NCBI GenBank assembly: GCA_017469625.1
Contig: JAFUGA010000027.1
Coordinates: 7,628-71,627 of the forward strand
Source of the DNA: Bacteroidales bacterium
GTDB lineage: Bacteria; Bacteroidota; Bacteroidia; Bacteroidales; P3
Direction: 5' to 3'
DNA: 64,000 nucleotides
The first letter of the stretch is position 1. Every line of letters starts with the position of its first letter. The notes beneath the pieces were generated by a model, which made no database searches, was not told where the DNA came from, and saw nothing but the letters and a program-made list of their open reading frames with translations. Both the position numbers and the translations under genes were made by a program. This document shows, in pieces, positions 2,426 through 58,401 of this stretch.

Positions 2426-2698
2426 CAAAATTTCGCTCGTGTGTAACTTTGTTTTAATTTTCTATCTCTTTGTTTTAATTTCACGAAACAAAGAAAGAGA
2501 ATTCTAAAACTTTGTTTTAATTTTCTGAAACGAAGAGATAGAAAGTTAGAATCAAGTTCTACGAAATTAAAACAAAGTTCTACAAAAATAGAATAAAGAG
2601 ATAGAATTTTAAAACGAAGTTACATACGAGCGAAACAAAGTTTTGCGAGCGTGAAACAAGACTTTGTGAGATTAAAATCAAGTTTTATTTTATTCGGG
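2426..2698. repeat. phased 21-bp repeat array, copy A (13 units, about 200-bp palindromic core)
   Basis: Parses without gaps into 21-mers starting at 2426, 2447, 2468 ... 2678, e.g. CTTTGTTTTAATTTTCTATCT, CAAAGTTCTACAAAAATAGAA and TAAAGAGATAGAATTTTAAAA. Segment 2431-2457 is the reverse complement of 2609-2635 at 25/27 positions. Confidence 0.9.
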
Positions 2699-2854
2699 TC
2701 TTACAGGTCAGCAAAAACTTTAAGGAGTTTAAAATAAAAACAAAATTTGGTAAATTTTTTTTTGTGTCTAATAGTTTGATAATCAAAGAATAGACTTAAA
2801 ATTCTCTTTCACCCACAAAAAAAAATCAACAAAAAACGTAACCTTAAAGACGAA

Positions 2855-2905
2855 AAAAACGTACCAAACAAACATTGCTTTGTGCAGTTTGTTTGGTACG
2901 TTTTT
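2855..2905. terminator. perfect 19-bp stem hairpin with flanking A/T runs (bidirectional terminator-like), core of a longer palindrome 2824-2930
   Basis: AAAAACGTACCAAACAAAC (2855-2873), a 13-nt loop, then GTTTGTTTGGTACGTTTTT (2887-2905). Outer arms AATCAACAA...TTGTTGATT extend the pairing. Confidence 0.4.
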
Positions 2906-3388
2906 CAGTCAAAGGTTAAACTTGTTGATTTTCATTATTTTCCGATTTTTCACAAAATTTTCATTTTTTAGGTTTTTACTACTGTTAAAACTTTGTGCAG
3001 AAATACAGTAACATAATAAAATTTTTACTCTGAAACATAAAAATCAAATTGTTTTCATTATCTTATTATTATACTGTGTTTTGTAGAGATATTATCTTTT
3101 GATAATAAACTCTTTTTTAAGAATAACTATGTTATTTTTTAATAAACTCTATAAGTTTAATTCTTTTATAGTTAGTTATTTACAAAGTTTAACTAAAGTA
3201 GTACTTTATGTAAATCTTGTAATATATCTGTAATATAGTGAATTAACTATTTTTATTTTAACAATATATCTTAAAAAATAACTTATAACATTATAAAACA
3301 ATCGTTTATATTGATTACCTCAAGTAAATTACTTTAGGTAAACCTTGTAACATATATGATAAACAAGTAATTAACTTTTTTTTACTTA

Positions 3389-5230
3389 CTATTCTTTTTC
3401 TGTATGGTAAAAATTCCAAACCTTTAGAGCTTTGCTTTTGCCGATACAGTCTGTTAAGGATTGTAGAGTAGCAATTTTTATCTTCTCTACAGAAGAGAAT
3501 TTTAGCAATAAATCTCTCGCTGTTTTTTCTCCTATACCCTCTATATCTGTAAGTTGTGTCTTAAAAGTGGCTTTGCTTCTCTTATCTCTATGGAACGTTA
3601 TACCAAATCTATGAGCCTCGTCCCTTATATGCTGAATTATTTGCAGAGTATGGCACCTTTTGTCCAAACAAATAGGTATTGGGTCGTTTGGAAAATAAAT
3701 CTCTTCCAATCTTTTTGCCAAGCCTATGACGGTAACCTTGTCCAAAACACCGGCTTTTTTCAATGCCTCGCAAGCACTGTGCAACTGTCCTTTTCCTCCA
3801 TCTATTACGATAAGGTCTGGCAAAGGTTTGCCCTCGTTTTCCAAACGTGAATACCTCCTATAGACTATCTCACGCATAGAAGCGAAGTCATCGGGTCCTA
3901 CAACTGTTTTTACGTTGAAATGTCTGTACTCTTTGTTTGACGGTTTGCCCTCACGGAAGACAACACAAGAGGCAACAGGGTTAGTTCCTTGAATATTAGA
4001 GTTATCAAAGCATTCTATATGATGTGGAGGTTTTTCAAGGTGAAGGTCTTTCTGCATCTCCAAAACAACTTTATTGCTCCAACGTTCAGGGTCAAGTATC
4101 TTGGCTTTTTTTATCTTTTGATTTCTGTAAAACAATGTGTTATGCAAAGAAAAATCCAAAATCTTTTTCTTCTCACCAGAAAGAGGTACAGTCTGCAAAA
4201 CATAGTCTTTTGGTAAATCTAAATACTCTGGTACTATGATTTCTTTGCTCAGCCACCCTTTGTCTATACGGTTCTGAACTATAGCCATAGTAAAGGTTTC
4301 CAAAGCAGAAATATCAAGTTTCTTTTCTATACTTACAGAAAATGAAGTGTTTATCTTGCCCTCAACAACCTTAGTCATATTCATATATATCTTGTCGCTG
4401 TCGTCTATAAAAGAGTAACATTCTATCTCTTTCACGGTGTTGGAAACTATGGCACTCATAGCCGAATAGTTTTCCAACAAGGTTATCTTCTCTTTTATTT
4501 GCTGGGCTTTTTCAAACTGTAGTTTGTCGGCGTATTCCATCATCTTGTCTTTCATTTCATTGAGATAAGAAGAGAAATTGCCCTTGATTATCTGTCGTAT
4601 TCCGTTTATTTCCTTATGGTATTCCACTCGGGATTGTTCGCCTGTGCAAGGGGAAAGACAAAGTCCTATTTGTGCATTCAGACAAGAAGAGTATTTGCCC
4701 TTGTTTATGCTTTCTTCTGTAAGAGGTAGGTTACAAGTGCGGTAAGTGAAAACTCTACGAATTAGGCTCAAAAGTTCTTTAAGTATCTTACCACTTGGAT
4801 AAGGTCCATAATACTGAGAACCGTCTTTGACTTGATGTCTTGTAGAATAGATTTTAGGAAACTCTTCGTTGGTAATCCTTATCCACGGATAAGTTTTGTC
4901 ATCTTTGAGCATTATGTTATACTTTGGTTGAAACTTTTTTATAAGGTTGTTCTCCATAAGAAGAGCCTCTGTTTCAGTATTAACATGTATGAATTTTATA
5001 TCCGCAATCTTTCTTACAAGTATCTGAGTTTTAAGACTATGCTGTGTATCGTTGCGAAAATAGGATAGTACTCTTGCTTTCAGATTTTTTGCCTTGCCTA
5101 CATAGATTATCTTCCCATTCTTGTCAAAATACTGATACACTCCCGGAGTAGATGGTAAAGAGGCAAGAATGGGAAGAATGTGTTGATTGTAAGGGTTGTT
5201 CTCAAGAATTTTGTATGGATTATTTAGCAT
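3389..5230 (-). CDS. uvrC: excinuclease ABC subunit C
   Basis: 613 aa. GIY-YIG motif (GVYQYFDKNGKIIYVGKAKNLKARV), central UVR/endonuclease region, C-terminal helix-hairpin-helix (IEGIGEKTARDLL). Confidence 0.95.
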   Translation of the reverse strand: MLNNPYKILENNPYNQHILPILASLPSTPGVYQYFDKNGKIIYVGKAKNLKARVLSYFRNDTQHSLKTQILVRKIADIKFIHVNTETEALLMENNLIKKFQPKYNIMLKDDKTYPWIRITNEEFPKIYSTRHQVKDGSQYYGPYPSGKILKELLSLIRRVFTYRTCNLPLTEESINKGKYSSCLNAQIGLCLSPCTGEQSRVEYHKEINGIRQIIKGNFSSYLNEMKDKMMEYADKLQFEKAQQIKEKITLLENYSAMSAIVSNTVKEIECYSFIDDSDKIYMNMTKVVEGKINTSFSVSIEKKLDISALETFTMAIVQNRIDKGWLSKEIIVPEYLDLPKDYVLQTVPLSGEKKKILDFSLHNTLFYRNQKIKKAKILDPERWSNKVVLEMQKDLHLEKPPHHIECFDNSNIQGTNPVASCVVFREGKPSNKEYRHFNVKTVVGPDDFASMREIVYRRYSRLENEGKPLPDLIVIDGGKGQLHSACEALKKAGVLDKVTVIGLAKRLEEIYFPNDPIPICLDKRCHTLQIIQHIRDEAHRFGITFHRDKRSKATFKTQLTDIEGIGEKTARDLLLKFSSVEKIKIATLQSLTDCIGKSKALKVWNFYHTEKE

Positions 5231-6688: not shown

Positions 6689-6723
6689 AAATATATAAAG
6701 TTAAAAATTAAAAATTCAGTCTG

Positions 6724-6731
6724 CAAAGATA
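6724..6731 (-). promoter_or_regulatory. -7 promoter box TATCTTTG upstream of purC
   Basis: Plus strand reads CAAAGATA. Located 35 nt upstream of the ATG at 6688. Confidence 0.45.
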
Positions 6732-6793
6732 CATTTTTTTATCAATAGATAGAAAAAAAACGTTTAAAAAACTTGTAAATACCAAATTTTTAC

Positions 6794-6801
6794 TATCTTT
6801 G
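6794..6801 (+). promoter_or_regulatory. -7 promoter box TATCTTTG upstream of the OmpA-family gene
   Basis: TAnnTTTG match 29 nt upstream of the ATG at 6831. Confidence 0.45.
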
Positions 6802-6830
6802 CACCGAATAAACAAACAATTAAATATATT

Positions 6831-8599: not shown

Positions 8600-9127
8600 T
8601 TAATCAATCAATGTACTTAAATCAAAATACATAGGAATAGTAACACTTTCTACAGGTTTCTCTTTTAATAAAGGACGAAAACCATTATGTTGATAAAAAC
8701 CTATAGCAGAAGGTAATGCATCTACCGTAACAAAACAACAACCTGTACGATTGTTTGTAACAAATAATCTTTTGATAAAGTAAAGAATTTCAGAGCCTAA
8801 ATTATGTCTTTGATAATTTTTACTAATACCTAAACGTCCTATCTTAACAGCAGGATAATCTTTTCTATGTTTGCGATGTGGAAAAATATTTTTAATCTTT
8901 CGCCATGTTGCCTTATCAGAATCTTCAAATGAAATTCTGTCATTTGAAACAGAGAAGTAACCTACAATATCTTGGTCTGTCTCTATAATATATGTAACAG
9001 ATAAAAGATGTTTTAAATAATTTTTTGCATCATTAAGTAAAAAATCATTTAAATCTCCTTCACCACAATCAAAAGAAGAAAAATGGTAATCTTGTGTCAA
9101 TCTTACAATTCTTATGTTATCTTCCAT
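8600..9127 (-). CDS. GNAT-family acetyltransferase, TacT/AtaT-like toxin architecture
   Basis: 175 aa. N-terminal FDCGEGDLNDFLLNDA motif. Acetyl-CoA region IGRLGISKNYQRHNLGSEIL and VDALPSAIGFYQHNGF. This layout is typical of GNAT toxins of type II TA systems. Confidence 0.7.
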   Translation of the reverse strand: MEDNIRIVRLTQDYHFSSFDCGEGDLNDFLLNDAKNYLKHLLSVTYIIETDQDIVGYFSVSNDRISFEDSDKATWRKIKNIFPHRKHRKDYPAVKIGRLGISKNYQRHNLGSEILYFIKRLFVTNNRTGCCFVTVDALPSAIGFYQHNGFRPLLKEKPVESVTIPMYFDLSTLID

Positions 9128-9133
9128 ATATTT

Positions 9134-9292
9134 TTATATGTCAAACGTAAGCCAAGACTTTAATTTTTGATAAGCCTCTTCCATTTTCTCTTTTTCTTCT
9201 TGCGACACCTTTTCAGCTTCTTCCATTGCCTTAACGAAGTTAAACGCATCTTCGCCTTTTAGTACAGGTGTTGGTTCTATTGGTCTTGCCAT
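9134..9292 (-). CDS. 52-aa acidic helical protein, candidate partner/antitoxin of the GNAT (not in ORF track)
   Basis: Hand translation: MARPIEPTPVLKGEDAFNFVKAMEEAEKVSQEEKEKMEEAYQKLKSWLTFDI. The stop lies 6 nt before the GNAT ATG. Confidence 0.45.
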   Translation of the reverse strand: MARPIEPTPVLKGEDAFNFVKAMEEAEKVSQEEKEKMEEAYQKLKSWLTFDI

Positions 9293-9302
9293 AATTTTGT
9301 TT

Positions 9303-9407
9303 TTATTTACTTGTTTGTTTCTTATTTTGTTTGTTCTCTAAATGGATAAACAAACAACCTATAAGCACACATACAATCAACAATATAAAACTAACATACG
9401 CATTCAT
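9303..9407 (-). CDS. 34-aa single-TM hydrophobic peptide (not in ORF track)
   Basis: Hand translation: MNAYVSFILLIVCVLIGCLFIHLENKQNKKQTSK. AGGAG lies 7 nt upstream. Gaps are 15 nt to the upstream ORF and 10 nt to the downstream ORF. Confidence 0.3.
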   Translation of the reverse strand: MNAYVSFILLIVCVLIGCLFIHLENKQNKKQTSK

Positions 9408-9698: not shown

Positions 9699-9909
9699 TA
9701 AAGTTTCGTTTTCTTGTAACTTTATTTTGAAAATTCTCTTTCTTTGTTTCGCTATTCTGAAACTTTGTTTTAGAATTCTATCTCTTTGTTTTAATTTTCT
9801 ATCTCTTTGTTTTAGAAAATTAGAATCAAGTTCTACGAAATTAAAACGAAGTTCTACAAAAATAGAATAAAGAGATAGAAAATTCTTTCTTTGTTTTAGA
9901 AAAATGAGA
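9699..9909. repeat. phased 21-bp repeat array, copy B (about 10 units)
   Basis: Units start at 9720 (22 nt), then 9742, 9763, 9784, 9805, 9826, 9847, 9868 and 9889. Examples: CTTTGTTTTAATTTTCTATCT, TCAAGTTCTACGAAATTAAAA, CGAAGTTCTACAAAAATAGAA. Confidence 0.9.
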
Positions 9910-12645: not shown

Positions 12646-13869
12646 ATGAAAAAAGTTATAATCTTCACACAACCTTTACGCATCAATTTTGGAGGAATAC
12701 TCCAAGCCTATGCTCTTCAAAAGACAGTAAGAGATTTAGGTTTTGATGTTATAACAGATAATCCTACTTTGAGAAGAAGATCTTTAATAGTTATATTAAA
12801 AGACTATGCAGCAAGGTTCTTTTATGGAGTTTTGAAAAACGATGACAAATATAAACCTTTTTTCAAAAAACGAGTGAAAAAAGAAGATTATGAAGTTATA
12901 TCTCGTAATCCTCAGAGGTTTATAAAAGAAAATATAAGGACTGTAGATTTTTTTTGCGGAAAACGACATCCTGATAAAAACAAAATAAAACAATACGATA
13001 TATATATAGCAGGTAGCGACCAAGTTTGGCGAAGAAGATATGCAGATGTTAAAAGATATTTCTTTGATTTTTTGGACGATGATTCTATAGATAGATTTTC
13101 TTATGCGGCTTCTTTTGGAGTAGATAATTTGAACGAGTATTCATTGGAAGAAAAGCAGATTTGCAAACAACTTGTTAAGAAATTCAAAGCCGTAAGCGTT
13201 AGAGAGTCCTCTGCAATAGATATTTTGAAAAAAGAGTTTGACCAAGAGGCAGTCTTGGTTTTAGACCCTACTATCCTATTGACAAAAGAGGATTATCTAA
13301 AACTTTGTTCTAATTTTTTAGAATCAAGTTCTACAAACGTAGAATCAAGTTTTAGAAAATTAAAACAAAGTTCTACAAACGAAGAAAAAGGAGATAAAAA
13401 ACGTATGTTTTGTTATGTCCTTGACCAAACAGAACAGACGGGTACTTTGACAAAAAAACTTGCTACTTATTTAAATATGGATACTGAGGGTGTAGGAGTT
13501 AAAGAAAATGTAGATTCAAAAGCCGAAGATATAACCCAATATATACTTCCAGATGTAGAGAAATGGATAATGATGTTTGATGATAGCGATTATATCTTTA
13601 CGGATTCTTTTCACGGTACAGTATTCTCCATTATTTTCAATAAACCTTTTGTAGTCATAATCAATAAAATAAGAGGTGGTTCAAGGTTGTATTCTTTGCT
13701 TTCTTTGTTAGGGTTGGAGGGTAGGATAATAAATTCTGAAGAAGATTTGACAGAGGAGTTTCTAAATCATCTTTACGATATAGATTACGAAAAAGTAAAT
13801 AAAAAGAAAGAAGAACTAAGAGAGTTTTCTTTGAATTATCTTAAACGTGCTTTAGGAGTAGAAGAATAA
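12646..13869 (+). CDS. polysaccharide pyruvyl transferase carrying an in-frame 21-bp-repeat insertion
   Basis: 407 aa. GGILQAYALQKTV, IAGSDQVWRR and TDSFHGTVFSIIFNKPF motifs shared with the paralog at 26694-27898. An extra segment SNFLESSSTNVESSFRKLKQSSTNEE is encoded by repeat units. Confidence 0.8.
   Translation: MKKVIIFTQPLRINFGGILQAYALQKTVRDLGFDVITDNPTLRRRSLIVILKDYAARFFYGVLKNDDKYKPFFKKRVKKEDYEVISRNPQRFIKENIRTVDFFCGKRHPDKNKIKQYDIYIAGSDQVWRRRYADVKRYFFDFLDDDSIDRFSYAASFGVDNLNEYSLEEKQICKQLVKKFKAVSVRESSAIDILKKEFDQEAVLVLDPTILLTKEDYLKLCSNFLESSSTNVESSFRKLKQSSTNEEKGDKKRMFCYVLDQTEQTGTLTKKLATYLNMDTEGVGVKENVDSKAEDITQYILPDVEKWIMMFDDSDYIFTDSFHGTVFSIIFNKPFVVIINKIRGGSRLYSLLSLLGLEGRIINSEEDLTEEFLNHLYDIDYEKVNKKKEELREFSLNYLKRALGVEE
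13303..13386. repeat. phased 21-bp repeat array, copy C (4 units, inside a CDS, in frame)
   Basis: CTTTGTTCTAATTTTTTAGAA / TCAAGTTCTACAAACGTAGAA / TCAAGTTTTAGAAAATTAAAA / CAAAGTTCTACAAACGAAGAA. These are the same unit types as the intergenic arrays. Confidence 0.85.
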
Positions 13870-18455: not shown

Positions 18456-19610
18456 ATGAAAATTTTAGTAACAGGAGCCAAAGGTTTTGTAGGCAAAAAC
18501 CTTGTAGCACAACTGCAAAACATAAAGCAGGAGAAAGCAAGATGGTATTCAGTTTCCAAAGATATAGATATATATGAATACGATATAGATTCTACAGAAG
18601 AGGAACTTGATAAGTATTGTAGGGATTGTGATTTTGTTTTCCACCTTGCAGGAGTCAATCGTCCAAAAGAACAAAAAGAGTTTATGGAAGGTAATTTTGG
18701 TTTTACAGATACACTGTTAAACACTCTGAAAAAACACAAAAATACTTGTCCTGTAATGATTTCCTCTTCTATTCAGGCACTTTTGGATAACCCATACGGA
18801 GAAAGCAAAAGGGCAGGAGAGAACCTAATGCGAGAATACTCTAAACAAACAGGTGCAAAGGTTCTTATATATCGTTTTCCTAATGTTTTCGGTAAGTGGT
18901 GCAAACCAAACTACAACTCAGCCGTTGCTACATTTTGCAACAACATAGCAAACGATTTGCCTATACAAGTAAATGACCCTAACGTTTTGATGCACTTGGT
19001 TTATATAGATGATGTGGTAGATGAACTTATTTCAGCACTTTCCGGTAATGAAAACAGAGAGGGAGATTTTTGCAAAGTAAAGGTAGAACACGAGATAAAA
19101 TTGGGTGAGATAGTAGATTTGATAAAGATGTTTCGTTCTCAGAGTGAAACACTTATTGTACCCGAAATGGCAGAAGGAAGTTTTGAGAAAAAATTATATG
19201 CTACCTACCTATCTTATCTGCCAAAGGAGAAAGTAAAGTTTCCTTTGAAGATGAACACAGACGCAAGAGGCAGTTTTACAGAACTGTTAAAGACTAACAA
19301 ATGCGGACAATTCTCTGTCAATGTTTCAAATCCTGGAATTACAAAAGGAGAACATTGGCACAATACCAAGTGGGAATTTTTTATAGTAGTATCCGGCCAC
19401 GCTCTTATAGAGGAAAGAAAGATAGGAAGCGAGGAGGTAATAAGTTTTGAAGTAAGTGGAGATAAACCAGAGGCTGTTCATATGTTGCCGGGTTATACTC
19501 ATAATATTACTAACCTTAGTAAGACAGAGAAACTTATAACTCTTATGTGGGCAAATGAACTCTTTGACCCACAAAGACCAGACACCTATTTTGAAAAAGT
19601 AAATATGTAA
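18456..19610 (+). CDS. fnlB: UDP-L-FucNAc pathway reductase/epimerase FnlB/CapF (SDR + C-terminal cupin)
   Basis: 384 aa. Near-collinear with remembered S. aureus CapF: TGAKGFVGKNL, HLAGVNRP, SSSIQA..DNPYGESK, FGKWCKPNYNSAVATFC, LYATYLSYLP, PGITKGEHWHNTK, MWANELFDPQRPDTYF. Confidence 0.9.
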   Translation: MKILVTGAKGFVGKNLVAQLQNIKQEKARWYSVSKDIDIYEYDIDSTEEELDKYCRDCDFVFHLAGVNRPKEQKEFMEGNFGFTDTLLNTLKKHKNTCPVMISSSIQALLDNPYGESKRAGENLMREYSKQTGAKVLIYRFPNVFGKWCKPNYNSAVATFCNNIANDLPIQVNDPNVLMHLVYIDDVVDELISALSGNENREGDFCKVKVEHEIKLGEIVDLIKMFRSQSETLIVPEMAEGSFEKKLYATYLSYLPKEKVKFPLKMNTDARGSFTELLKTNKCGQFSVNVSNPGITKGEHWHNTKWEFFIVVSGHALIEERKIGSEEVISFEVSGDKPEAVHMLPGYTHNITNLSKTEKLITLMWANELFDPQRPDTYFEKVNM

Positions 19611-19619
19611 AAATAAAAC

Positions 19620-19808
19620 TTTGTTTTAATTTTCTAAAACTAAGAAAGAGATTTCTAAAACTTTGTTTTAATTTCGTAGAACTTGATTCTAATTTTCTAA
19701 AACGAAGAGATAGAATTCTAAAACAAAGTTCTACGAAATTAAAACAAAGAGATAGAAAATTAAAACAAAGTTCTACAAAAATAGAATAAAGAGATAGAAA
19801 AATAAAAG
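19620..19808. repeat. phased 21-bp repeat array, copy D (9 exact-register units) between fnlB and fnlC
   Basis: CTTTGTTTTAATTTTCTAAAA / CTAAGAAAGAGATTTCTAAAA / CTTTGTTTTAATTTCGTAGAA / CTTGATTCTAATTTTCTAAAA / CGAAGAGATAGAATTCTAAAA / CAAAGTTCTACGAAATTAAAA / CAAAGAGATAGAAAATTAAAA / CAAAGTTCTACAAAAATAGAA / TAAAGAGATAGAAAAATAAAA. Confidence 0.95.
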
Positions 19809-19815: not shown

Positions 19816-20985
19816 ATGGATTACAAACATATACAGTTCAAAAACAACGGTAAATTAAAACTCCTTATAATAGTAGGAACAAGACCTGAAATCATACGTT
19901 TGGCAGCCGTTATAAACAAATGTAGAAATTATTTTGATACTATTTTGGCTCATACGGGACAAAATTATGATTATAACCTTAATGGGATATTTTTTAAAGA
20001 TTTAAAACTTCAAGATGCTGAAGTTTATATGAACGCTGTTGGCAATGATTTGGGACAAACCATAGGAAACATTATAGCAGAGTCTTACAAACTTATGGTG
20101 GATATAAACCCAGATGCTTTGTTGATATTGGGCGATACAAATTCTTGCCTTTCTGCTATAGCAGCAAAACGTTTGCATATACCTATCTTTCACATGGAGG
20201 CTGGAAACCGTTGCAAAGATGAATGTTTGCCAGAAGAAACCAACAGAAGAATAGTAGATATAATCTCAGATGTAAATCTTGCATATTCAGAACACGCAAG
20301 AAGATATTTGGCAGAATGTGGTTTGCCAAAGGAAAGAACGTATGTTACCGGTTCTCCTATGGCAGAGGTTCTTAGAAACAACTTACAGGAGATAGAATCT
20401 TCGCAAATACTTGATAAATTGGGATTAAAGAAAAAAGGGTATATACTTTTATCTGCTCATAGAGAAGAAAACATAGACACAGAAAAGAATTTCATATCCT
20501 TATTTACTGCCATAAACAAATTGGCAGCAAAATATGATATGCCTATACTTTATTCTTGCCACCCAAGAAGTAAAAAAAGATTGGAACAAAGCAAGTTTGA
20601 ACTTGATAAACGTGTAATACAGCACGAACCATTGGGATTTCATGACTACAATAACTTGCAAATGAATGCTTTTGCGGTAGTTTCAGACAGTGGAACTTTG
20701 CCAGAAGAAAGTAGTTTCTACACTTCTTTGGGTAAAAGTTTTCCTGCTATCTGCATAAGAACGAGTACAGAACGCCCAGAGGCTTTGGACAAGGCTTGTT
20801 TTGTGCTTGCTGGTATAGATGAAAAAAGTTTGTTGCAAGCAGTAGAACTTGCAGTGGATATGAACGAAAACACCGACAACGGAATACCTGTTCCAAACTA
20901 CACAGACGAAAACGTATCAACCAAGGTTGTGAAAATAATACAATCTTATACAGGTATAGTAAATAAGATGGTGTGGAGAAAATAG
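19816..20985 (+). CDS. fnlC: UDP-N-acetylglucosamine/UDP-L-PneNAc 2-epimerase FnlC/CapG
   Basis: 389 aa. IVGTRPEIIRL, HTGQNYDY, LILGDTNSCL, FHMEAGNRC, SAHREENID, IRTSTERPE and VSTKVVKIIQSY all match the CapG/FnlC pattern. Confidence 0.9.
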   Translation: MDYKHIQFKNNGKLKLLIIVGTRPEIIRLAAVINKCRNYFDTILAHTGQNYDYNLNGIFFKDLKLQDAEVYMNAVGNDLGQTIGNIIAESYKLMVDINPDALLILGDTNSCLSAIAAKRLHIPIFHMEAGNRCKDECLPEETNRRIVDIISDVNLAYSEHARRYLAECGLPKERTYVTGSPMAEVLRNNLQEIESSQILDKLGLKKKGYILLSAHREENIDTEKNFISLFTAINKLAAKYDMPILYSCHPRSKKRLEQSKFELDKRVIQHEPLGFHDYNNLQMNAFAVVSDSGTLPEESSFYTSLGKSFPAICIRTSTERPEALDKACFVLAGIDEKSLLQAVELAVDMNENTDNGIPVPNYTDENVSTKVVKIIQSYTGIVNKMVWRK

Positions 20986-31012: not shown

Positions 31013-31077
31013 CCCATAAACACACAATAAAATAAAGAAATTCTTACTCTTTTAACTGAAATATAAAAACTTTATCT

Positions 31078-31085
31078 TAACTTTG
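31078..31085 (+). promoter_or_regulatory. internal -7 promoter box TAACTTTG within the polysaccharide locus
   Basis: TAnnTTTG match in the 219-bp gap, directly abutting repeat array E and 146 nt upstream of the ATG at 31232. Confidence 0.35.
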
Positions 31086-31090
31086 CAGAA

Positions 31091-31195
31091 CTTTATTTCG
31101 TGTTTCTATCTCTTTGTTTTAATTTTCTCTTTCTTTGTTTTAGAAAATTAAAACAAAGCTTTAGAAAAATAGAATAAGGTTTTAGAAAATTGTAA
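31091..31195. repeat. phased 21-bp repeat array, copy E (5 units)
   Basis: CTTTATTTCGTGTTTCTATCT / CTTTGTTTTAATTTTCTCTTT / CTTTGTTTTAGAAAATTAAAA / CAAAGCTTTAGAAAAATAGAA / TAAGGTTTTAGAAAATTGTAA. Confidence 0.85.
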
Positions 31196-37778: not shown

Positions 37779-37883
37779 TATTGTTTCGTTCTCGTAAAGC
37801 TTTGTTTTAATTTTCTAAAACAAAGAGATAGAAAAATAAAACAAAGTTCTACAAAATTAAAACAAAGTTTCGCTGAAGCAAAA
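37779..37883. repeat. phased 21-bp repeat array, copy F (5 units)
   Basis: CTTTGTTTTAATTTTCTAAAA (37800) / CAAAGAGATAGAAAAATAAAA / CAAAGTTCTACAAAATTAAAA / CAAAGTTTCGCTGAAGCAAAA, preceded by a TTTCGTTCTCGTAAAG terminal-type unit. Confidence 0.85.
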
Positions 37884-37952: not shown

Positions 37953-38822
37953 ATGCACTTTGTTGAAGTAAAAAATATTCTTACGGGAGTGAACAATGGA
38001 ATGAACGTTTATAGGGGTTGCGTTCATGGGTGTGTCTATTGCGATACGAGAAGTAATTGTTATGGCTTTACTCACGCAATGGAAGATGTGGAGGTAAAAC
38101 AAAATGCAGTGGAATTATTGGATAACACTTTGAAACACAAGAAACAAAGATGTATGATAGGAACAGGCTCTATGGCAGACCCATACCAGCCTTGCGAAAA
38201 AGGGTTGTTGATTACGAGAAAGTGTTTAGAGGTTATTCTAAAAAGAGGTTTCGGTGCTACTATGATAACTAAATCCGATTTGGTTTTGAGAGATTTGGAC
38301 TTTTTAAAGGAAATAAATCATAGGTCTAAATGCGTGGTTCAGATAACATTGACTTGTACAGATGATGTTTTGAGCAAAAAGATAGAACCCAACGTTTGTA
38401 CCACTAACGAGAGAATAAAAGTATTGGAAACGCTGAAATACAATAATATACCTACAGTTGTTTGGCTTTCGCCTATACTTCCTTTTATTACAGATACGAA
38501 AGAGAATATCAAAAACATACTTGAAGCCTGTGTATCAACGAACGTAAAAGGTATAGTTTGTTTTGGAATGGGTATGACCTTAAGAAAGGGTAATAGAGAA
38601 TATTTTTATGATTTCCTTGATAAGTTTTATCCTCCTTTGAAACAGAAATATATAGATACATTCAGAGAAGATTATCAACTTTCTTCACCAAACAATAAAG
38701 AGTTGATGACTATGTATTACGAGGTTTGTGATAAACACAATATTATCTCATATCCAAATGATGTTTTCAATTATTTAAAAGACTTCCCAAAGAAAGAAAA
38801 ACAGTTGGAACTAATGTTTTAA
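37953..38822 (+). CDS. radical SAM protein (SPL/COG1533-like)
   Basis: 289 aa. CxxxCxxC cluster motif GCVHGCVYCDTR near the N-terminus. Confidence 0.8.
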   Translation: MHFVEVKNILTGVNNGMNVYRGCVHGCVYCDTRSNCYGFTHAMEDVEVKQNAVELLDNTLKHKKQRCMIGTGSMADPYQPCEKGLLITRKCLEVILKRGFGATMITKSDLVLRDLDFLKEINHRSKCVVQITLTCTDDVLSKKIEPNVCTTNERIKVLETLKYNNIPTVVWLSPILPFITDTKENIKNILEACVSTNVKGIVCFGMGMTLRKGNREYFYDFLDKFYPPLKQKYIDTFREDYQLSSPNNKELMTMYYEVCDKHNIISYPNDVFNYLKDFPKKEKQLELMF

Positions 38823-38922
38823 CAGAGAGATTTCGTTAAGTTTTTTTATGTTAAAGTTATATTTTTTTCGGTGTTTTGAAACATTTTAAGGCAAAATAGC
38901 ATTGTTTTTTAGAAAATTTCTC

Positions 38923-38930
38923 TATCTTTG
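38923..38930 (+). promoter_or_regulatory. -7 promoter box TATCTTTG
   Basis: TAnnTTTG match 39 nt upstream of the ATG at 38970. Confidence 0.45.
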
Positions 38931-38969
38931 CAAAATCATAATTTTAACATAAAAAAAATAAAAAGACCC

Positions 38970-43805: not shown

Positions 43806-44070
43806 GAAACTTTGTTTTAGATTTATAAAAAGGTATTTTCGGACAAAAATATATTCTTTTTAGAATACTAAAAGGTATTTTAGAACACTATTTTTTAACT
43901 TTATTATTACAAAGTTTTCCTTGAATTTTCTAACTCTTTATTCTAATTTTCTAAAACGAAGAGATAGAAAATTAGAACGAAGTTCTACAAAATTAGAATC
44001 AAGTTTTAGAAAACTAAAACAAAGAGATAGAAAATTAAAACAAAGTTCTACAGAATTAAAACTTTGTTTT
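43806..44070. repeat. phased 21-bp repeat array, copy G (6 clean units at 43936-44061 plus a degenerate upstream part)
   Basis: CTTTATTCTAATTTTCTAAAA / CGAAGAGATAGAAAATTAGAA / CGAAGTTCTACAAAATTAGAA / TCAAGTTTTAGAAAACTAAAA / CAAAGAGATAGAAAATTAAAA / CAAAGTTCTACAGAATTAAAA. Confidence 0.85.
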
Positions 44071-44091
44071 GTGGGGAGGTGGTAGGAAAAA

Positions 44092-44133
44092 GAAAACAAA
44101 CAAGATGATTTTATAAAAATCTTGTTTGTTTTC
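44092..44133 (-). terminator. rho-independent terminator downstream of the Sel1-repeat gene
   Basis: Perfect 15-bp stem GAAAACAAACAAGAT (44092-44106) / ATCTTGTTTGTTTTC (44119-44133). A T-run follows on the minus strand. Confidence 0.75.
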
Positions 44134-44159
44134 TGTGTATTTAATTAAGAATAAGGAGT

Positions 44160-47345: not shown

Positions 47346-47445
47346 CGTTAATATTATTTTAAGTTATTTTTATATCTTATTAAACTATTGTTTTTCTTTA
47401 TTAAGTTACTTGTATTTCTTAGAAATACGCAAACCCTAAGTCAAA

Positions 47446-53176: not shown

Positions 53177-53345
53177 CGAAGTTACATTCCTCACAGAACT
53201 TCGTTTTAGTTTTCTATCTCTTTGTTTTAATTTTCTAAAACTTCGTTTTAATTTCATAGAACTTGATTCTAATTTCACGAAACAAAGTTTTAGAATTCTA
53301 TCTCTTTGTTTTAATTTTGTAGAACTTTGTTTTGTAAAAGTAGAA
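53177..53345. repeat. phased 21-bp repeat array, copy H (8 units) between convergent genes
   Basis: Units start at 53199, 53220, 53241, 53262, 53283, 53304 and 53325. Examples: CTTCGTTTTAGTTTTCTATCT, CTTTGTTTTAATTTTCTAAAA, CTTCGTTTTAATTTCATAGAA, CTTGATTCTAATTTCACGAAA. The array ends flush with the stop codon of the 53346 gene. Confidence 0.9.
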
Positions 53346-55442
53346 CTAAATTTTGCCCCAATATTTTCTTAGGAACCATTCACCACCAAGCGTTAGGGCT
53401 ATCAAAAGCCAATACCACCAAAGAGAGATAAAGCGTTTGGATTCTGTGCTTTCGTGCATTATAGGTTTTATATTTTGATTGTTTTTTATAACATCTACTA
53501 ATTTTTCCACATCTTTAGGATAAAACATTTTGCCATTTGTTTTTGATGCAAGTGTATATAAATCACTGTGTTTTGCAACCAAATCGCTTTCTTCCATTTC
53601 TATGTTATGGATAACGAAATTGCCTTTGTCGGTGTATGTTTTATTGCCAAGTGTCGTTGTGGCAGAGAAAGAGTATTCGCCTGCATTCATCTTGCCCAAG
53701 TTAAGAAAATATGCGTTGTTCGTTTTGCCAAAAGAATGATTTACACTCTTGCCTTTATTTGTTATAATTATCTCTGCTTCAGGTGTATTTACAAGTTCAA
53801 AATTCTCGTTATATAGTTGTGCTTGCAAGATAATATCTTCATTTTGAGAATAAAAATCTTTGCTTTCCACATGGAAATGAGCCCGAGTAGATTTTTCACC
53901 TACCAACTGTATGGTTTTGTTTATGATTTCATCTGCTTCGTTATGTGTTTGATTGATTAAATAGTTAGTCAATCGCCATCTCCAAATATTTTCACCAGTT
54001 ATAAATCCTGTCTTCGTTGTTCCATTTTCAGAAAAAGCAATCAAAGGATAATTTGTAGAAACTGAACCTATATTTTGGTACATCAAAACATTGGAAGACG
54101 CTGTTAAAGAATACTTTGCTATAGGTGAGAGTAGAGGAGGGAAGTTCTTTATCATATCCTCTGCATTTGGCGAAAGGGTGAATGAAGAGAAAGATTTGTT
54201 ATAAGAAGGTGTTGTTTGGTTCAGCCCAGAGGATAAAGGCAAGATGTTTAACGAAGTTTTCAGAGAATTAAATAAAGCAATGTTTGTCCCTTGTCCCAAA
54301 ACGAAAAGGGTAGGAATGTTTTTGTTTAATATTTGTGAGATTTCATTTGCAGAGATTGTGTTTTGAGGAAGATTGTGCAGTATTACCATATCATAATCCT
54401 CTATTTTGCCCACTTTTCTTAAATTATCAAACATAGAAAACGTGCATTCGTAATTCTGATTTGCCTCTATAACAGATTTAAATGCAGATATATCCGGGTG
54501 TGGTGCAGATGCAAGGATAAGTATCTTCTTTTTGGAATTGATAACCTCTATATAAATATCTTTTTTGTTATTTATAATGTTGTATTCCTTATCTATTTTA
54601 GAAACAATAAAAGAAACTTTTTCTCTGCCAATTTGTTGTGCCAAAGACTTATAAGGTATAGTAATAGCGAAGTCATCGTCTTCTATTTTGAAGTTTTTTA
54701 TCAAAGTACGTTTTCCTGCTTTCTCCATAAACAAAGAAGCATTCTCACCTTTGGCTTTATATGCTGAAACGGTAATCTCTAAAGGGTACTCGTTGTTTAA
54801 AAGTACTACCTTATTGTATCTTACATCTGCTATTTTTATGTCTTTTCTTATGGAATTATCTCCCATTGCTATGGTATAGATAGGGCAATTAAACTCGTTG
54901 TTATACGAAAGCAAATCTCCACCTACAGTATTTATACCATCGGAAGCAATAACTATGGCAGCAATATTTTGAGAAGAATAATTTTCTGCAACAAAGGAAT
55001 AAAGGTTATCAAAATCCGTTGCAAAATCATTGTAATCCACCTTATTATCTGAAAGTTTACTGTCTATGATATTAGTTTTGCTACCAAAGGTTACAGGTAT
55101 TAGATTGTAGTCTTCTTTTTCTATCTTTGAGAAAATATTTTGCAGTTTTTTAAGGTATTCTTTCTTGTAAAAACTACTATCTTTTGTATTTACGATAGAA
55201 GAAGAATTGTCTTGTGCATAAAGGATTATAGGTTTTTCTACATCAAAATGTTTTATCTTTTTCACAGGTGAGAGAAATAAAAACAAGATAAGAAACAGCG
55301 AAACAAACCTTAAGGCAGATAAAACATACCTTTGCAAAGAGGTATAGGCTTTATCTTTCTTGTAAAAATAGAAAAAATAAGTTAGTCCAAAACAAACGGC
55401 TACTATAAGCAAACCCCACCAAAGTGAATACTCTGTAAACAT
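53346..55442 (-). CDS. large conserved hypothetical membrane-anchored protein
   Basis: 698 aa. Two N-terminal TM helices, one C-terminal TM helix (LWWYWLLIALTLGG) and a large intervening domain with no motif I can name. Confidence 0.5.
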   Translation of the reverse strand: MFTEYSLWWGLLIVAVCFGLTYFFYFYKKDKAYTSLQRYVLSALRFVSLFLILFLFLSPVKKIKHFDVEKPIILYAQDNSSSIVNTKDSSFYKKEYLKKLQNIFSKIEKEDYNLIPVTFGSKTNIIDSKLSDNKVDYNDFATDFDNLYSFVAENYSSQNIAAIVIASDGINTVGGDLLSYNNEFNCPIYTIAMGDNSIRKDIKIADVRYNKVVLLNNEYPLEITVSAYKAKGENASLFMEKAGKRTLIKNFKIEDDDFAITIPYKSLAQQIGREKVSFIVSKIDKEYNIINNKKDIYIEVINSKKKILILASAPHPDISAFKSVIEANQNYECTFSMFDNLRKVGKIEDYDMVILHNLPQNTISANEISQILNKNIPTLFVLGQGTNIALFNSLKTSLNILPLSSGLNQTTPSYNKSFSSFTLSPNAEDMIKNFPPLLSPIAKYSLTASSNVLMYQNIGSVSTNYPLIAFSENGTTKTGFITGENIWRWRLTNYLINQTHNEADEIINKTIQLVGEKSTRAHFHVESKDFYSQNEDIILQAQLYNENFELVNTPEAEIIITNKGKSVNHSFGKTNNAYFLNLGKMNAGEYSFSATTTLGNKTYTDKGNFVIHNIEMEESDLVAKHSDLYTLASKTNGKMFYPKDVEKLVDVIKNNQNIKPIMHESTESKRFISLWWYWLLIALTLGGEWFLRKYWGKI

Positions 55443-56199: not shown

Positions 56200-56220
56200 C
56201 GAAATTTCATATAAAAAACT

Positions 56221-56228
56221 TATCTTTG
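56221..56228 (+). promoter_or_regulatory. -7 promoter box TATCTTTG upstream of the GT2 fusion gene
   Basis: TAnnTTTG match 24 nt upstream of the ATG at 56253. Divergent from the box at 56192. Confidence 0.45.
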
Positions 56229-56252
56229 CACCTTTAAATATTGAAATGAATA

Positions 56253-58202
56253 ATGATAAAACTCTCAATAGTTATAGTTAATTATAACGTAGAACATTTT
56301 TTAGAACATTGTCTTTTAAGTGTTAGACAGGCGGTAAAAAACATAGAAACAGAGATATTTGTAGTAGATAATAACTCTGTTGATAACTCCGTGCCTATGC
56401 TTAAAGAGAAGTTTACAGAAGTAAAACTTATAGAAAACAAAGAAAATGTTGGTTTTGCTAAAGCGAACAATCAAGCCATAAGAATTTCACAAGGAGAGTA
56501 TGTTCTTTTGTTAAACCCCGATACAGTTGTAGAAGAGGATACTTTTACTAAATGTATAGATTTTATGGACAAAACTCCTGATGCGGGTGCTTTGGGTGTG
56601 AAGATGATAGACGGACAAGGTAAAATTCTTAAGGAGAGTAAGAGAGGTTTTCCTACGCCATGGGTTTGTTTTTGCAAGATGACAGGACTAACTTCTTTGT
56701 TTCCAAATTCTAAAAAATACTGTGGCTACTATATGGGACACTTATCTTACGATGAAACAAACCAAGTAGATATTCTTGCAGGGGCTTATATGCTTATGAG
56801 AAAGAAAGCCTTGTATAAGAGTGGATTATTGGACGAAACTTTCTTTATGTACGGCGAAGATATAGACTTGTCTTACCGTATAACTTTGGCTGGATACAAG
56901 AACTACTACTTTGCAGATACAAATATCATACACTACAAAGGCGAATCCACAAAAAAAGGTTCTTTAAACTATGTTTATACTTTCTATAACGCTATGGATA
57001 TTTTTGCAAAAAAGCATCTATCTTCCTCTCAGACGAAAATATTTTCTCTTATCATAAAATTGGCTATATGGTTTAGGGCTTCGTTGGCTTTCTTTAAAAG
57101 AATATTCAAAAATCTCTTACTTCCTCTAATAGATTTTGTGCTTTTATACTTGGGATTTTTCTTTTTAGAGAAATTTTGGGCTGTAACCTATTGGCACAAT
57201 GCAGAATACTACCCATTGCATTATTTGATTGTAGCGGTACCTTTGTATATCATCATTCTACTTTTCGGAGTCTATGTTTTCGGAGGTTATGAAAAAAAAT
57301 TCAAACCTTATAAACTTATGTACGGAGTAGGTATGGGAATGATAAGTCTTTTAGTTGTCTATTCCTTAATGCCTGCCTCTATGAGATATTCAAGAGCTAT
57401 GGTTCTAATGGGGTCTATCCTTAGTTTCTTTATTCTTTTTGCTATAAGGTATCTTCGTCATTTTATTCAGGAAAGAACTTGGACGCTGAGCAAAGAGCAT
57501 ATAAATTCTTTCGCTATTGTAGGCGATAAAGCAGAAACACAAAGGGTTACTCGCTTGTTGAAAGATACCAACCTGAAACCTGAATTTATAGGAATGGTGT
57601 CAGACAAAGAAGACGAGGATAAAAACTATTTCTTAGGTAATATCAATCAATTAGAAGATATAATAAGGATATACAAAGTAGGAGAGGTAATCTTTTGTTC
57701 CAAAACCTTATCTCAAAGTACTATTATTTCCACAATGACAAACTTATCAAAGGAAAACGTAAGGTTTACCATAGCACCCGATAGCGATTTTATAATAGGT
57801 AGCAACACTATAAATACCCCTACAGATATATACGTAATGAGTGTTAGTAGTATAAGCAGTGAAACCAATAGAAGAAAGAAACGTTTGTTGGATTTCTCAC
57901 TTTCGTTTGTTTTTCTGTTACTTACGGTGGTACTTTTGTTTGTTACAAAAAAGCCTTTCCGTGCTATAAAAAACAATTTTTTAGTTCTTATTTCCAAGAA
58001 AACCTTTGTAGGTTATGACCTTAAAGATACAAACGTAAATGATTTGCCAAAACTAAAACCAAGTATATTCTCAGTTTCAGATAATATGAATAGCGACAAA
58101 TTAGACGAACAAACTCTTCACCGTCTTAACCTTTTGTATGCACGAAACTATAACGTAAAAAACGACCTTGATACAGTACTAAAGAATTTTAGGAGAATGT
58201 AA
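56253..58202 (+). CDS. GT2 glycosyltransferase fused to a multi-TM region and a degenerate phosphoglycosyl-transferase-like C-terminus
   Basis: 649 aa. GT2 motifs LSIVIVNYN, FVVDNNSVDNS and LLNPD. Then about 5 TM helices, a Rossmann-like linker (FAIVGDKAETQR...EVIFCS) and KRLLDFSLSFVFLLLTV, without the catalytic core that normally follows in PGTs. Confidence 0.65.
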   Translation: MIKLSIVIVNYNVEHFLEHCLLSVRQAVKNIETEIFVVDNNSVDNSVPMLKEKFTEVKLIENKENVGFAKANNQAIRISQGEYVLLLNPDTVVEEDTFTKCIDFMDKTPDAGALGVKMIDGQGKILKESKRGFPTPWVCFCKMTGLTSLFPNSKKYCGYYMGHLSYDETNQVDILAGAYMLMRKKALYKSGLLDETFFMYGEDIDLSYRITLAGYKNYYFADTNIIHYKGESTKKGSLNYVYTFYNAMDIFAKKHLSSSQTKIFSLIIKLAIWFRASLAFFKRIFKNLLLPLIDFVLLYLGFFFLEKFWAVTYWHNAEYYPLHYLIVAVPLYIIILLFGVYVFGGYEKKFKPYKLMYGVGMGMISLLVVYSLMPASMRYSRAMVLMGSILSFFILFAIRYLRHFIQERTWTLSKEHINSFAIVGDKAETQRVTRLLKDTNLKPEFIGMVSDKEDEDKNYFLGNINQLEDIIRIYKVGEVIFCSKTLSQSTIISTMTNLSKENVRFTIAPDSDFIIGSNTINTPTDIYVMSVSSISSETNRRKKRLLDFSLSFVFLLLTVVLLFVTKKPFRAIKNNFLVLISKKTFVGYDLKDTNVNDLPKLKPSIFSVSDNMNSDKLDEQTLHRLNLLYARNYNVKNDLDTVLKNFRRM

Positions 58203-58254
58203 ATCTTATACATTATTATGTATATGTGTGTAGTAAAATTTCATTTTTCTAACT

Positions 58255-58401
58255 CTTCGTTCTTTTTTCACGAAACAAAGTTTTAGATTTCTATTTCTTT
58301 GTTTTAATTTCACGAAACTTTGTTTTAGAATTCTATCTCTTTGTTTTAGAAAATTAAAACAAAGAAAGAGAAATTTAGAATCAAGTTTTATTTTACTGAT
58401 A
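58255..58401. repeat. phased 21-bp repeat array, copy I (7 units)
   Basis: CTTCGTTCTTTTTTCACGAAA / CAAAGTTTTAGATTTCTATTT / CTTTGTTTTAATTTCACGAAA / CTTTGTTTTAGAATTCTATCT / CTTTGTTTTAGAAAATTAAAA / CAAAGAAAGAGAAATTTAGAA / TCAAGTTTTATTTTACTGATA. Confidence 0.9.

Follow-up and report, generated by a model that had tools for sequence, protein, structure and literature searches.

A dispersed, apparently undescribed family of in-register 21-bp repeat arrays in an uncultured gut Bacteroidales bacterium

Interspersed repeats such as REP/REPIN, BOX, ERIC and Correia elements are well studied in Proteobacteria and Firmicutes. The BOX elements of Streptococcus pneumoniae, for instance, are modular and carry a variable number of boxB modules, the modules being 45-59 nt long and arranged in a fixed A-B(n)-C order. 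To our knowledge, interspersed repeats have barely been described in Bacteroidales, a dominant gut order. One described case is BrickBuilt of Porphyromonas gingivalis, a MITE/minisatellite with 19 dispersed intergenic copies built on a 23-nt repeat (Klein et al. 2015, PMC4596501). A REP unit is itself palindromic, 20-40 nt long, and has GTAG or CGTC at its foot; the RAYTs of Bacteroidetes form a subclass of their own (2.6), with 'atypical' REPs (PMC3733652, PMC6006769). Among eukaryotic foldback elements, the sub-repeats of Galileo are transposase-binding sites (PMC3688188).

The window analysed here, a 64-kb stretch of DNA from an uncultured gut Bacteroidales bacterium, holds nine loci, all of which are gap-free arrays of 21-bp cells and all but one of which (array C) are non-coding. 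They occur about once per 7 kb, make up about 2.5% of the window and lie in tandem, convergent, divergent and intragenic contexts; of their cells, about 40 are well conserved and some 30 degenerate. Cells are called A-oriented or T-oriented after their anchors, CAAAG or CTTTG, and the arrays are as follows.

Array A, 2426-2698: 13 cells, a mosaic of T-oriented and A-oriented cells with inverted, GC-richer terminal cells.
Array B, 9700-9909: 10 cells, with a hinge cell at 9805-9830.
Array C, 13303-13386, + strand: four cells, in frame within a polysaccharide pyruvyl-transferase gene (12646-13869).
Array D, 19619-19807: nine cells, between two + strand cistrons of the capsule operon.
Array E, 31070-31195: six cells, with a hinge cell at 31133-31158, between two + strand genes of the capsule locus.
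Array F, 37779-37883: five cells, with terminal-type cells at both ends, between two + strand genes.
Array G, 43810-44066: one cell at 43810, five degenerate in-register cells and seven good cells (43915-44061).
Array H, 53178-53345: eight cells, nearly all T-oriented, an essentially direct array.
Array I, 58234-58401: eight cells, with a hinge cell at 58339-58364.

A position at gene 3' ends or operon boundaries, given for all intergenic copies in the preliminary description, does not apply to five of the nine: B is in a divergent region, D, E and F separate cistrons of a single capsule operon, and C is intragenic. Array A sits in the 1.2 kb that separate uvrC from a thioredoxin-like gene (both -); array B separates a GNAT/small-ORF pair (-) from the first gene of the capsule locus, a MatE flippase gene (+); and array D occupies the entire 205-bp intercistronic gap between a stop codon ending at 19610 and the next ATG at 19816. 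Array G is found between two - strand genes, with a separate terminator-like hairpin beyond it at 44091-44137. Array H, which separates convergent genes, directly adjoins the stop codon at 53346 of the one on the - strand, and array I has a GT2 glycosyltransferase gene on one side and a pyridine-nucleotide disulphide oxidoreductase gene on the other (both +). When 56 single-orientation runs of cells were compared with their flanking genes, no orientation bias emerged (14, 12, 12 and 9).

The periodicity is robust. Tandem Repeats Finder returned arrays of period 21 or 42 at all nine loci, and the proposed autocorrelation analysis gave the expected 21-bp peak, with pooled values of 0.575, 0.565 and 0.50 at lags 21, 42 and 63 over a background of about 0.32 and small bumps at lags 10-11. 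The suggested 42-bp super-period is not borne out, its autocorrelation being no stronger than that at 21 bp (0.565 vs 0.575). A position weight matrix made from the units, applied at a cut-off of at least 18 bits, found 37 cells, every one of them within the nine arrays, where Markov-1 simulations predicted 0.07 by chance. As first delimited, the arrays parse into 21-mers that start with C or T followed by TTTG, AAAG, GAAG or CAAG, as described; E and I each begin one cell further left (31070 and 58234) than first listed, and the first five units assigned to G, although still in register, are degenerate (43831-43914).

Each cell consists of a 5-nt anchor C-W3-G (CAAAG or CTTTG) followed by a 16-nt body of 6+4+6 nt. 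A conserved block of 11-15 nt, AAAATTAAAA-CAAAG, is combined with a variable hexamer drawn from a small vocabulary (AGATAG, TTCTAC, TTTTAG, AAAGAG and TTTCGT/TTTCAC), and a self-complementary hinge cell, CTTTGTTTTA-GAAAAT-TAAAACAAAG, also occurs. The claim that both orientations share a single 21-bp register holds, in that CAAAG-like and CTTTG-like anchors fall on residue 0 modulo 21 in all nine arrays. Window-wide, exact CAAAG (A) and CTTTG (T) anchors stand 21 nt apart in 6 AA, 10 TT, 6 TA and 6 AT pairs, with no more than three pairs at any other distance within 10-33. The spacing is strict: no indels were found inside cells, and it holds through changes of orientation and from species to species. 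The TTTCGCTCGTGTGTAA-type terminal cell, described as recurring at array ends, is confirmed at A (both ends, inverted: TTTCGCTCGTGTGTAAC at 2431-2447 and GTTACATACGAGCGAAA at 2619-2635), B, F and H, and is not a feature of all arrays.

The family extends beyond the window. Just outside it, this genome has three further arrays, which brings the count to 12 over about 84 kb, all with the same cell vocabulary; two of the outer arrays, J and K, are almost purely direct, like H. Other Bacteroidales metagenome contigs carry variants with the same anchors and 21-bp spacing, mostly as direct runs, and the genes between paired arrays in these contigs are ordinary ones (TPR, EamA, epimerase and LPG synthase), with no transposases. 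An exact 26-mer was found in only three Bacteroidales MAGs of a genome collection whose representative genomes do not include the species of the window, each MAG carrying a remnant of 1-3 cells. The arrays stayed below the gathering threshold of Rfam, the tRNA-Gln being the only passing match within the window, and in E-value mode gave only sub-threshold matches to generic models of plant miRNA hairpins; nothing in plasmid or phage records matched them, and a literature search by sequence motif and keywords returned only BrickBuilt and general REP papers. Like the preliminary description, which recognised no named family, we thus found no match in Rfam, the plasmid and phage records or the literature searched. 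The 21-bp arrays are a real interspersed repeat family, apparently one that has not been described before.

Comparison among strains and relatives shows that arrays gain and lose whole cells. Array A is exactly 84 bp (four cells) longer in strains L005, L006, L008 and L009, and array D differs from that of the relative L112 by a 42-bp and a 21-bp indel; array I is identical in strain L123. L112, about 96% identical, holds B, C and D at the same positions, with 30 bp missing from B at the hairpin tip, and there is no sign of recent movement. Strain SNPs in array H cluster in two cells, and clustered SNPs of this kind turn one cell into another existing cell type. Substitutions in the arrays amount to 3.5%, as against 7.8% at third codon positions (Fisher p = 0.0007). 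Blocks of at least three cells are common to separate loci, for example A and B (68 nt at 97% identity), A and D (43 nt at 100%), A and G (104 nt at 85%) and G and H (81 nt at 88%). Relatives with 79-82% glycosyltransferase identity have one unit or none, and three relatives whose GroEL is 96-98% identical (L118/L119, L120/L121 and L126) showed no arrays in the sampled groEL neighbourhood of 16-22 kb.

Array C is translated within the pyruvyl-transferase as ...CSNFLESSSTNVESSFRKLKQSSTNEE..., which forms part of a variable linker. This stretch is missing from homologues of about 50% identity, which are 385 aa long, and is kept in the enzymes of relatives that are 98% and 90% identical; the coding sequence at its left edge (YLKLC = TAT CTA AAA CTT TGT) is native and resembles a cell boundary. 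Rickettsia palindromic elements likewise lie in frame in protein genes and are not known to have internal periodic cells.

With about even confidence, we read the family as a lineage-specific, modular, non-autonomous interspersed repeat, or interspersed minisatellite, that evolves by slippage, inversion and gene conversion; most likely it is modular and selfish, and not a device dedicated to regulation. Whole cells would be gained and lost by slipped-strand mispairing or unequal recombination, and cells would flip orientation when inverted copies recombine or the template is switched between them, as could happen at the self-complementary hinge, an event that by its geometry would keep the 21-bp register. 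Cells may be homogenised through gene conversion. Multi-cell blocks would have been copied into a large number of intergenic sites and, in one case, into the linker of a gene, either by a trans-acting transposase or recombinase or by recombination, and the copies would now be inherited vertically at fixed sites. This reading is favoured by the in-register lattice, the 12 arrays in this genome, the whole-cell indels, the 30-bp loss from B, the shared blocks, the in-frame insertion absent from homologues, the relatives without arrays in the sequence sampled, the variants in other Bacteroidales contigs, the varied gene contexts with no orientation bias and the clustered SNPs. Against it, the low substitution rate in the arrays could reflect functional constraint rather than gene conversion, and the 21-bp spacing maintained across species is not required by a purely selfish or neutral model. 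It also counts against this reading that no transposase, RAYT or other candidate enzyme was detected in the window or in about 954 kb of fetched loci (about 84 kb of them from this genome), all ORFs of which were scanned for motifs, or among the genes between paired arrays, and that neither an empty orthologous site nor a target-site duplication was found. In that comparison L112 shares B, C and D, and the remoter relatives, chosen by glycosyltransferase (82-73%) and GroEL (98-94%) identity, turned out to be non-syntenic.

The strict spacing without intra-cell indels, kept through flips and across species, may instead point to a host protein-binding lattice, in which each cell is a site for a nucleoid-associated protein or regulator that binds cooperatively on one helix face every two turns. 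We consider this unlikely, though worth keeping in view, and the same holds for the corollary that such a lattice would organise or silence local DNA such as the AT-rich capsule locus. A conserved 11-15-nt block with a small hexamer vocabulary, a substitution rate below that of third codon positions and an orientation independent of the genes, which fits a role at the DNA level, would all suit a lattice. However, no candidate protein emerged, strains differ freely in cell number, close relatives do without arrays in the sequence sampled, one copy (C) is intragenic, and recombination alone can explain flips that preserve the register. Nor does the proposed intrinsic curvature of the DNA prove specific to the unit. 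In our own implementation of the wedge model, with parameters after Bolshoy et al. 1991, the arrays are only moderately curved (their means rank between the 3rd and 33rd percentiles of the window), but tandems of shuffled units are on average equally curved and 38% of the shuffles exceed the real unit, so that curvature as a specific property was rejected.

The long RNA hairpins foreseen in the preliminary description were recovered in silico, with predicted minimum free energies of -96.3 kcal/mol for A (z = -10.7), -60.2 kcal/mol for D (z = -10.5) and about -59 kcal/mol for B (z about -5.8). Such stability, together with the position of D, E and F between cistrons of one operon, would be in keeping with a REP/BIME-like RNA element whose hairpins are selected for mRNA stabilisation, RNase III processing between cistrons or attenuation of read-through, and versions of the arrays recast in one orientation fold two to three times more weakly. 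We nevertheless regard such an element as quite improbable. Typical single cells fold at 0 kcal/mol, only the hinge cell folding (-6.2 kcal/mol); permuting the cell order leaves the fold energy nearly unchanged (z 0 to -2.9, p < 0.05 only for D and E); and array H folds no better than its permuted or one-orientation versions. H, J and K are almost purely direct and the arrays of relatives are mostly direct runs, no U-tract follows the hairpins, and Rfam gave no match above threshold. The REP/BIME analogy fails at the level of the unit, and the strong hairpin potential is predicted to arise from the mixed orientation of the cells. On our preferred reading of a modular repeat, the long hairpins and mild curvature would be by-products of orientation mixing and the two-turn period, which may still influence mRNA processing or local DNA structure.

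Two other candidate roles were set aside. An intrinsic terminator was rejected because the A-rich arm comes last, which leaves the hairpin without a trailing U-tract. A Bacteroidetes promoter was rejected as the main role, the cells reading TA-N4-TTTG rather than the TAnnTTTG of the -7 box; -7-like boxes are only about 2.5-fold enriched within arrays, and their placement relative to genes is inconsistent.

It is very unlikely that the arrays are independent local minisatellites, each grown by in-place slippage from an AT-rich intergenic seed such as AAAACAAAG with no copying between loci. Whole-cell indels do show active slippage, and the native sequence at the left edge of array C resembles a cell boundary, but rare cell variants occur in the same order at distant loci (the 68-nt and 43-nt blocks above), one cell vocabulary serves all 12 loci, related species of similar base composition are without arrays in the sequence sampled, and comparison of blocks between loci suggests that cells cluster by type across loci and not by locus. 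Decayed genes with a coding 7-residue repeat (21 bp being seven codons) have next to no standing as a source, since, even though one frame is open in both orientations and array C is translated in frame, this origin is effectively refuted by the switches of orientation within loci, the A-oriented AGATAG cell has stop codons in other frames, and all copies but one are intergenic with no ORF of at least 100 aa across them.

The architecture of the family, with one register, two orientations and a small cell vocabulary, is unusually strict. Because arrays change by whole cells among strains, they could serve as a strain-typing marker, and they probably also cause breaks in metagenome assemblies. 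Their location, in intercistronic gaps of a capsule operon and within one gene, means that they may influence gene expression and the evolution of proteins. A cognate enzyme or binding protein, if there is one, could be sought directly by means of the cell grammar.

BrickBuilt is analogous to the 21-bp family and is not the same element. Both are found in Bacteroidales as dispersed, intergenic, spacer-free tandem arrays of a unit of about two helical turns, with variable copy number, imperfect units and confinement to one species group (PMC4596501). Unlike BrickBuilt, the 21-bp family has a period of 21 bp, both orientations in one register and neither leader nor tail, and the sequences are unrelated. 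The arrays abut genes directly without conserved flanks, and the IS5-like terminal inverted repeats of BrickBuilt (GAGACCTTTGCA and TGCAAAGGTCTC) are absent from them (of 9 matches with at most two mismatches, against 4.5 expected, none is at an array). Of the generic MITE features, inverted terminal cells occur at A and, in part, at B, F and H. The cells are contiguous and vary only in a 6-nt core from a small recurring vocabulary, which separates them from CRISPR arrays.

With REP/BIME/REPIN elements the family shares a high extragenic copy number, clusters of both orientations, hairpin potential, vertical stability and occasional in-frame insertion into genes (PMC3733652, PMC6006769). Unlike a REP, the 21-nt cell does not fold and has no conserved foot; where GTAG appears, in some cells only, it is the TTCTAC core in reverse complement, and the other cores are without it.

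Eukaryotic foldback elements (Drosophila FB and Galileo; PMC3688188) resemble the arrays in having unequal inverted arms of short tandem sub-repeats in variable number. They differ in being eukaryotic and much longer and in having a known transposase, and many 21-bp copies are purely direct, with cells that flip several times per array. It is conceivable, if on balance doubtful, that three kinds of array from Bacteroidales lineages whose units are unrelated in sequence, namely the 21-bp family, the mirrored arrays of L117 (22 bp) and those of P. gingivalis (22/23 bp), are products or substrates of one machinery. This could be a nucleoid protein, or a family of transposases or recombinases, binding units cooperatively at two-turn spacing. 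If so, these arrays would be a prokaryotic counterpart of the eukaryotic foldback elements, with a defined in-register cell grammar.

The repeat family is real and statistically solid. Tandem Repeats Finder detected period-21 or period-42 arrays at each of the nine loci put forward in the preliminary description, and these loci can indeed be parsed without gaps into 21-mers that start with C or T followed by TTTG, AAAG, GAAG or CAAG. A position weight matrix of the 21-bp cells, built iteratively from the units and used to scan the 64-kb window at a threshold of at least 18 bits, returned 37 cells, 37/37 of them within the nine arrays, against 0.07 expected from first-order Markov simulations. 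The autocorrelation of the pooled arrays (0.575, 0.565 and 0.50 at lags 21, 42 and 63 vs about 0.32 elsewhere, with small bumps at lags 10-11) confirmed the 21-bp period; the 42-bp super-period also suggested earlier proved no stronger than this basic period. Arrays make up 2.5% of the window, about 1.6 kb in total.

All arrays can be written as a lattice of 21-bp cells, each consisting of an anchor of 5 nt (CAAAG or the complementary CTTTG, with CGAAG, TCAAG and TAAAG as variants) and a body of 16 nt, divided 6+4+6. Read in the A-rich orientation, this body is a variable hexamer (AGATAG, TTCTAC, TTTTAG, AAAGAG or TTTCGT/TTTCAG/TTTCAC) followed by AAAA and TTAAAA; GC-richer "terminal" cells such as TTACACACGAGCGAAA are also present. 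As previously claimed, both orientations share one register: modulo 21, CAAAG- and CTTTG-type anchors occupy a single position in 9/9 arrays. A random inversion point would keep register about once in 21. Exact CAAAG/CTTTG pairs at distance 21 number 6, 10, 6 and 6 in the whole window for the orientations AA, TT, TA and AT, whereas no other distance between 10 and 33 gives more than three, indicating that cell flips go both ways and always in register. Even the five weak cells of the partly degenerate array G (43831-43914) keep the register intact. A recurring hinge cell, CTTTGTTTTA-GAAAAT-TAAAACAAAG, is self-complementary (-6.2 kcal/mol as DNA); single-cell prediction gave no folding at all for ordinary cells.

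The host is an uncultured Bacteroidales bacterium, with a window G+C of 32%, GldH and a long capsule locus. Identical or near-identical proteins are recorded as "MAG: Bacteroidales bacterium", and the window GroEL is 95% identical to a protein with the nr name Candidatus Scybalousia and 88% identical to a Candidatus Onthomorpha protein. Same-species contigs from other samples (L004 and L123) lengthen the window by about 10 kb per side and carry three more arrays, so the family is not confined to the window:

2426-2698, array A, between tandem genes
9700-9909, array B, in a divergent region
13303-13386, array C, inside a gene
19619-19807, array D, between capsule operon cistrons
31070-31195, array E, between capsule operon cistrons
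37779-37883, array F, between capsule operon cistrons
43810-44066, array G, between tandem genes
53178-53345, array H, between convergent genes
58234-58401, array I, between tandem genes
L004:21069-21236, array outside the window
L123:11695-11880, array outside the window
L123:15131-15298, array outside the window

These 12 arrays in about 84 kb amount to one per 7 kb. Two of the three additional arrays have 8-9 cells in essentially one orientation (direct), and array D occupies the entire 205-bp gap separating its two cistrons. The arrays show no preference of context; the statement that all copies lie at gene 3' ends or operon boundaries is incorrect, given the tandem, inter-cistron, convergent, divergent and intragenic sites. 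The contig of the syntenic relative L112 stops a few hundred bases beyond uvrC, roughly at the expected position of array A, and another contig (L007) stops within about 600 bp of a GNAT pair on the array-B side; these ends suggest that the repeats break metagenome assemblies. Other features of the window are as follows:

8600-9330, minus strand, a GNAT acetyltransferase (175 aa) beside an upstream 52-aa ORF
2852-2905, a strong hairpin with perfect pairing that resembles a bidirectional terminator (AAAAACGTACCAAACAAAC ... GTTTGTTTGGTACGTTTTT), downstream of uvrC in a 1.2-kb spacer of unusual length
47359-47421, three copies, with indels, of an imperfect repeat of 21-bp period (TTAAGTTATTTTTATTTCTTA), adjoining groEL and upstream of the expected groES position; its sequence is not related to the family
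58404-58488, a 40-bp tandem duplication (2.2 copies) directly after array I

The GNAT gene and its small neighbor look like a TacT/TacA-type toxin-antitoxin pair, which is found in the window strain and close strains and is absent from L112; the OmpA-to-MatE gap is 938 bp in L112 vs 1954 bp in the window. A box resembling the Bacteroidetes -7 element is present in each 40-bp copy (for instance TATCTTTG at 58447), so the duplication may represent a doubled promoter for the downstream oxidoreductase gene.

Array C is inserted in the gene of a polysaccharide pyruvyl transferase and is translated as part of its reading frame. Homologs at about 50% identity have 385 aa and lack the stretch SNFLESSSTNVESSFRKLKQSSTNEE, which is located in a length-variable linker and is kept in relatives at 98% and 90% identity. 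At the left edge, the native codons (Y-L-K-L-C, TAT CTA AAA CTT TGT) are already cell-boundary-like, which hints at homology-guided insertion or seeding.

The phylogenetic distribution of the family among relatives, which were picked by protein identity (GroEL or a glycosyltransferase), is patchy. Three lineages whose GroEL is 96-98% identical (L118-L121 and L126) have no arrays in the 16-22 kb of sampled sequence surrounding groEL, one small array occurs in L122 (GroEL 94%), and upstream of groES in L127 (42% G+C, GroEL 98%) the lattice recurs in a GC-richer form. The two L127 intervals, L127:9235-9314 and L127:12541-12683, cover this lattice and an unrelated tandem array (42 bp x 3) next to a putative tRNA gene. 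By glycosyltransferase identity, L115 (82%) has one unit, L116 (79%) has none in the sampled stretch, and L117 (73%) has mirrored arrays of 22-bp units (L117:4735-4973 and L117:18270-18450) unrelated in sequence to the window family; they follow the same architecture with different "words". One L117 array pair flanks a 90-bp core with its own repeats. The 21/22-bp tandem repeats within the DNA polymerase I gene of two relatives (L126:15503-15588 and L118:15549-15589) probably encode a repeat of seven residues in a linker, and they belong to a different family. An exact 26-mer scan covering one genome per species found three Bacteroidales MAGs only, with 1-3 cells each adjoining terminator-like hairpins. 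The degenerate pattern CAAAG-N6-AAAATTAAAACAAAG matched 95 metagenome stretches; about half of them have more cells at exact 21-bp spacing, with cores mostly AAAGAA or AAAGAG, about 98 of 125 ACAAAG pairs at distance 21 being a product of the search pattern itself. These variants are typically direct runs of 3-5 cells, some of them mirrored. One match is a predicted viral contig from IMG/VR (L014:9530-9660), in which 4-5 AAAGAA-core cells are followed by a terminator-like hairpin; Bacteroidales phages or prophages may therefore carry the family.

Co-occurring strains differ in array A by exactly 84 bp, or 4 cells. In L112, whose DNA is about 96% identical, sites B, C and D are likewise occupied by arrays; array D differs by one 42-bp and one 21-bp indel, and in array B the tip of the hairpin is shorter by 30 bp. 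Aligned array positions differ at 15/427 sites (3.5%) and third codon positions of the flanking genes at 344/4406 (7.8%), the arrays being lower (Fisher p = 0.0007). Together with the whole-cell indels, this indicates that substitutions are relatively rare and whole-cell changes frequent. The main rival explanation, a lattice bound by a host protein, draws on this low substitution rate and on the two-turn spacing conserved across species, but no candidate protein was found, and gene conversion would also account for the low rate. Five strain SNPs in array H are concentrated in two cells and convert CTTTGTTTTAA to CTTTATTCTAA, a cell form found elsewhere, which suggests gene conversion.

A selected RNA-hairpin role ranks third. 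The long hairpins anticipated earlier are indeed predicted for arrays A, D and B (-96, -60 and -59 kcal/mol; z = -10.7, -10.5 and -5.8, respectively, vs dinucleotide shuffles). However, permuting cell order gives nearly as low an energy (z 0 to -2.9, only D and E falling under 5% of permutations), and the fold becomes two to three times weaker when every cell is set to the same orientation; the hairpin potential thus arises from orientation mixing and not from a selected palindromic order. Array H, the arrays J and K outside the window and those of most relatives are nearly direct. A strand-specific RNA role is further disfavored by 56 single-orientation runs from the window species and metagenome relatives (14 sense, 12 antisense, 12 convergent and 9 divergent), which show no orientation bias relative to flanking genes. 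Canonical intrinsic terminators are ruled out because no U-tract follows the hairpins. The proposed intrinsic curvature is not specific either: in our own implementation of the Bolshoy-Trifonov wedge model, with the 1991 parameters, array curvature is moderate (array means rank between the 3rd and 33rd percentiles of the window), and shuffled units in five tandem copies match the real unit in average curvature, 38% exceeding it. Curvature is therefore a generic outcome of any 21-bp period and is not optimized in the cells. The most curved segments of the window are 38809-38955, 6700-6825 and 59368-59500, none a repeat array.

Independent local origin of each array is argued against by common blocks of at least three cells at far-apart loci, in the same order and with rare variants included (best matches A-B, 68 nt, 97%; A-D, 43 nt, 100%; A-G, 104 nt, 85%; G-H, 81 nt, 88%), which point to block copying by transposition or conversion. 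The 21-bp family is most likely a lineage-specific modular interspersed repeat. We propose that its blocks would be copied between loci by a putative enzyme or by recombination, that cells may flip via recombination or template switching between inverted cells, and that gene conversion may homogenize them. Such flips would preserve the register, since the symmetry point is always at the anchor centre or the body centre.

The family is apparently undescribed so far and its grammar unusually strict; in line with the earlier failure to recognize a named family, Rfam gave no match above threshold. It nevertheless belongs to a known kind of element and is not a new kind of system. REP/BIME/REPIN elements are likewise extragenic, bi-oriented and clustered with occasional in-frame insertion, and a RAYT subclass of their own, with atypical REPs, exists in Bacteroidetes (PMC3733652, PMC6006769); in contrast, the 21-bp cells are not palindromic and lack a GTAG or CGTC foot, and no RAYT-like ORF was found in 954 kb of fetched sequence. 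In architecture, the mirrored copies are similar to the foldback elements of eukaryotes, in which tandem sub-repeats make up the inverted arms (PMC3688188). By analogy, the nearest described relative in kind is BrickBuilt of P. gingivalis, which differs in having only direct repeats together with a leader, a tail and terminal repeats of the IS5 type, features that are absent here, but is also an intergenic, spacer-free minisatellite of Bacteroidales, with units of 23 nt (PMC4596501).
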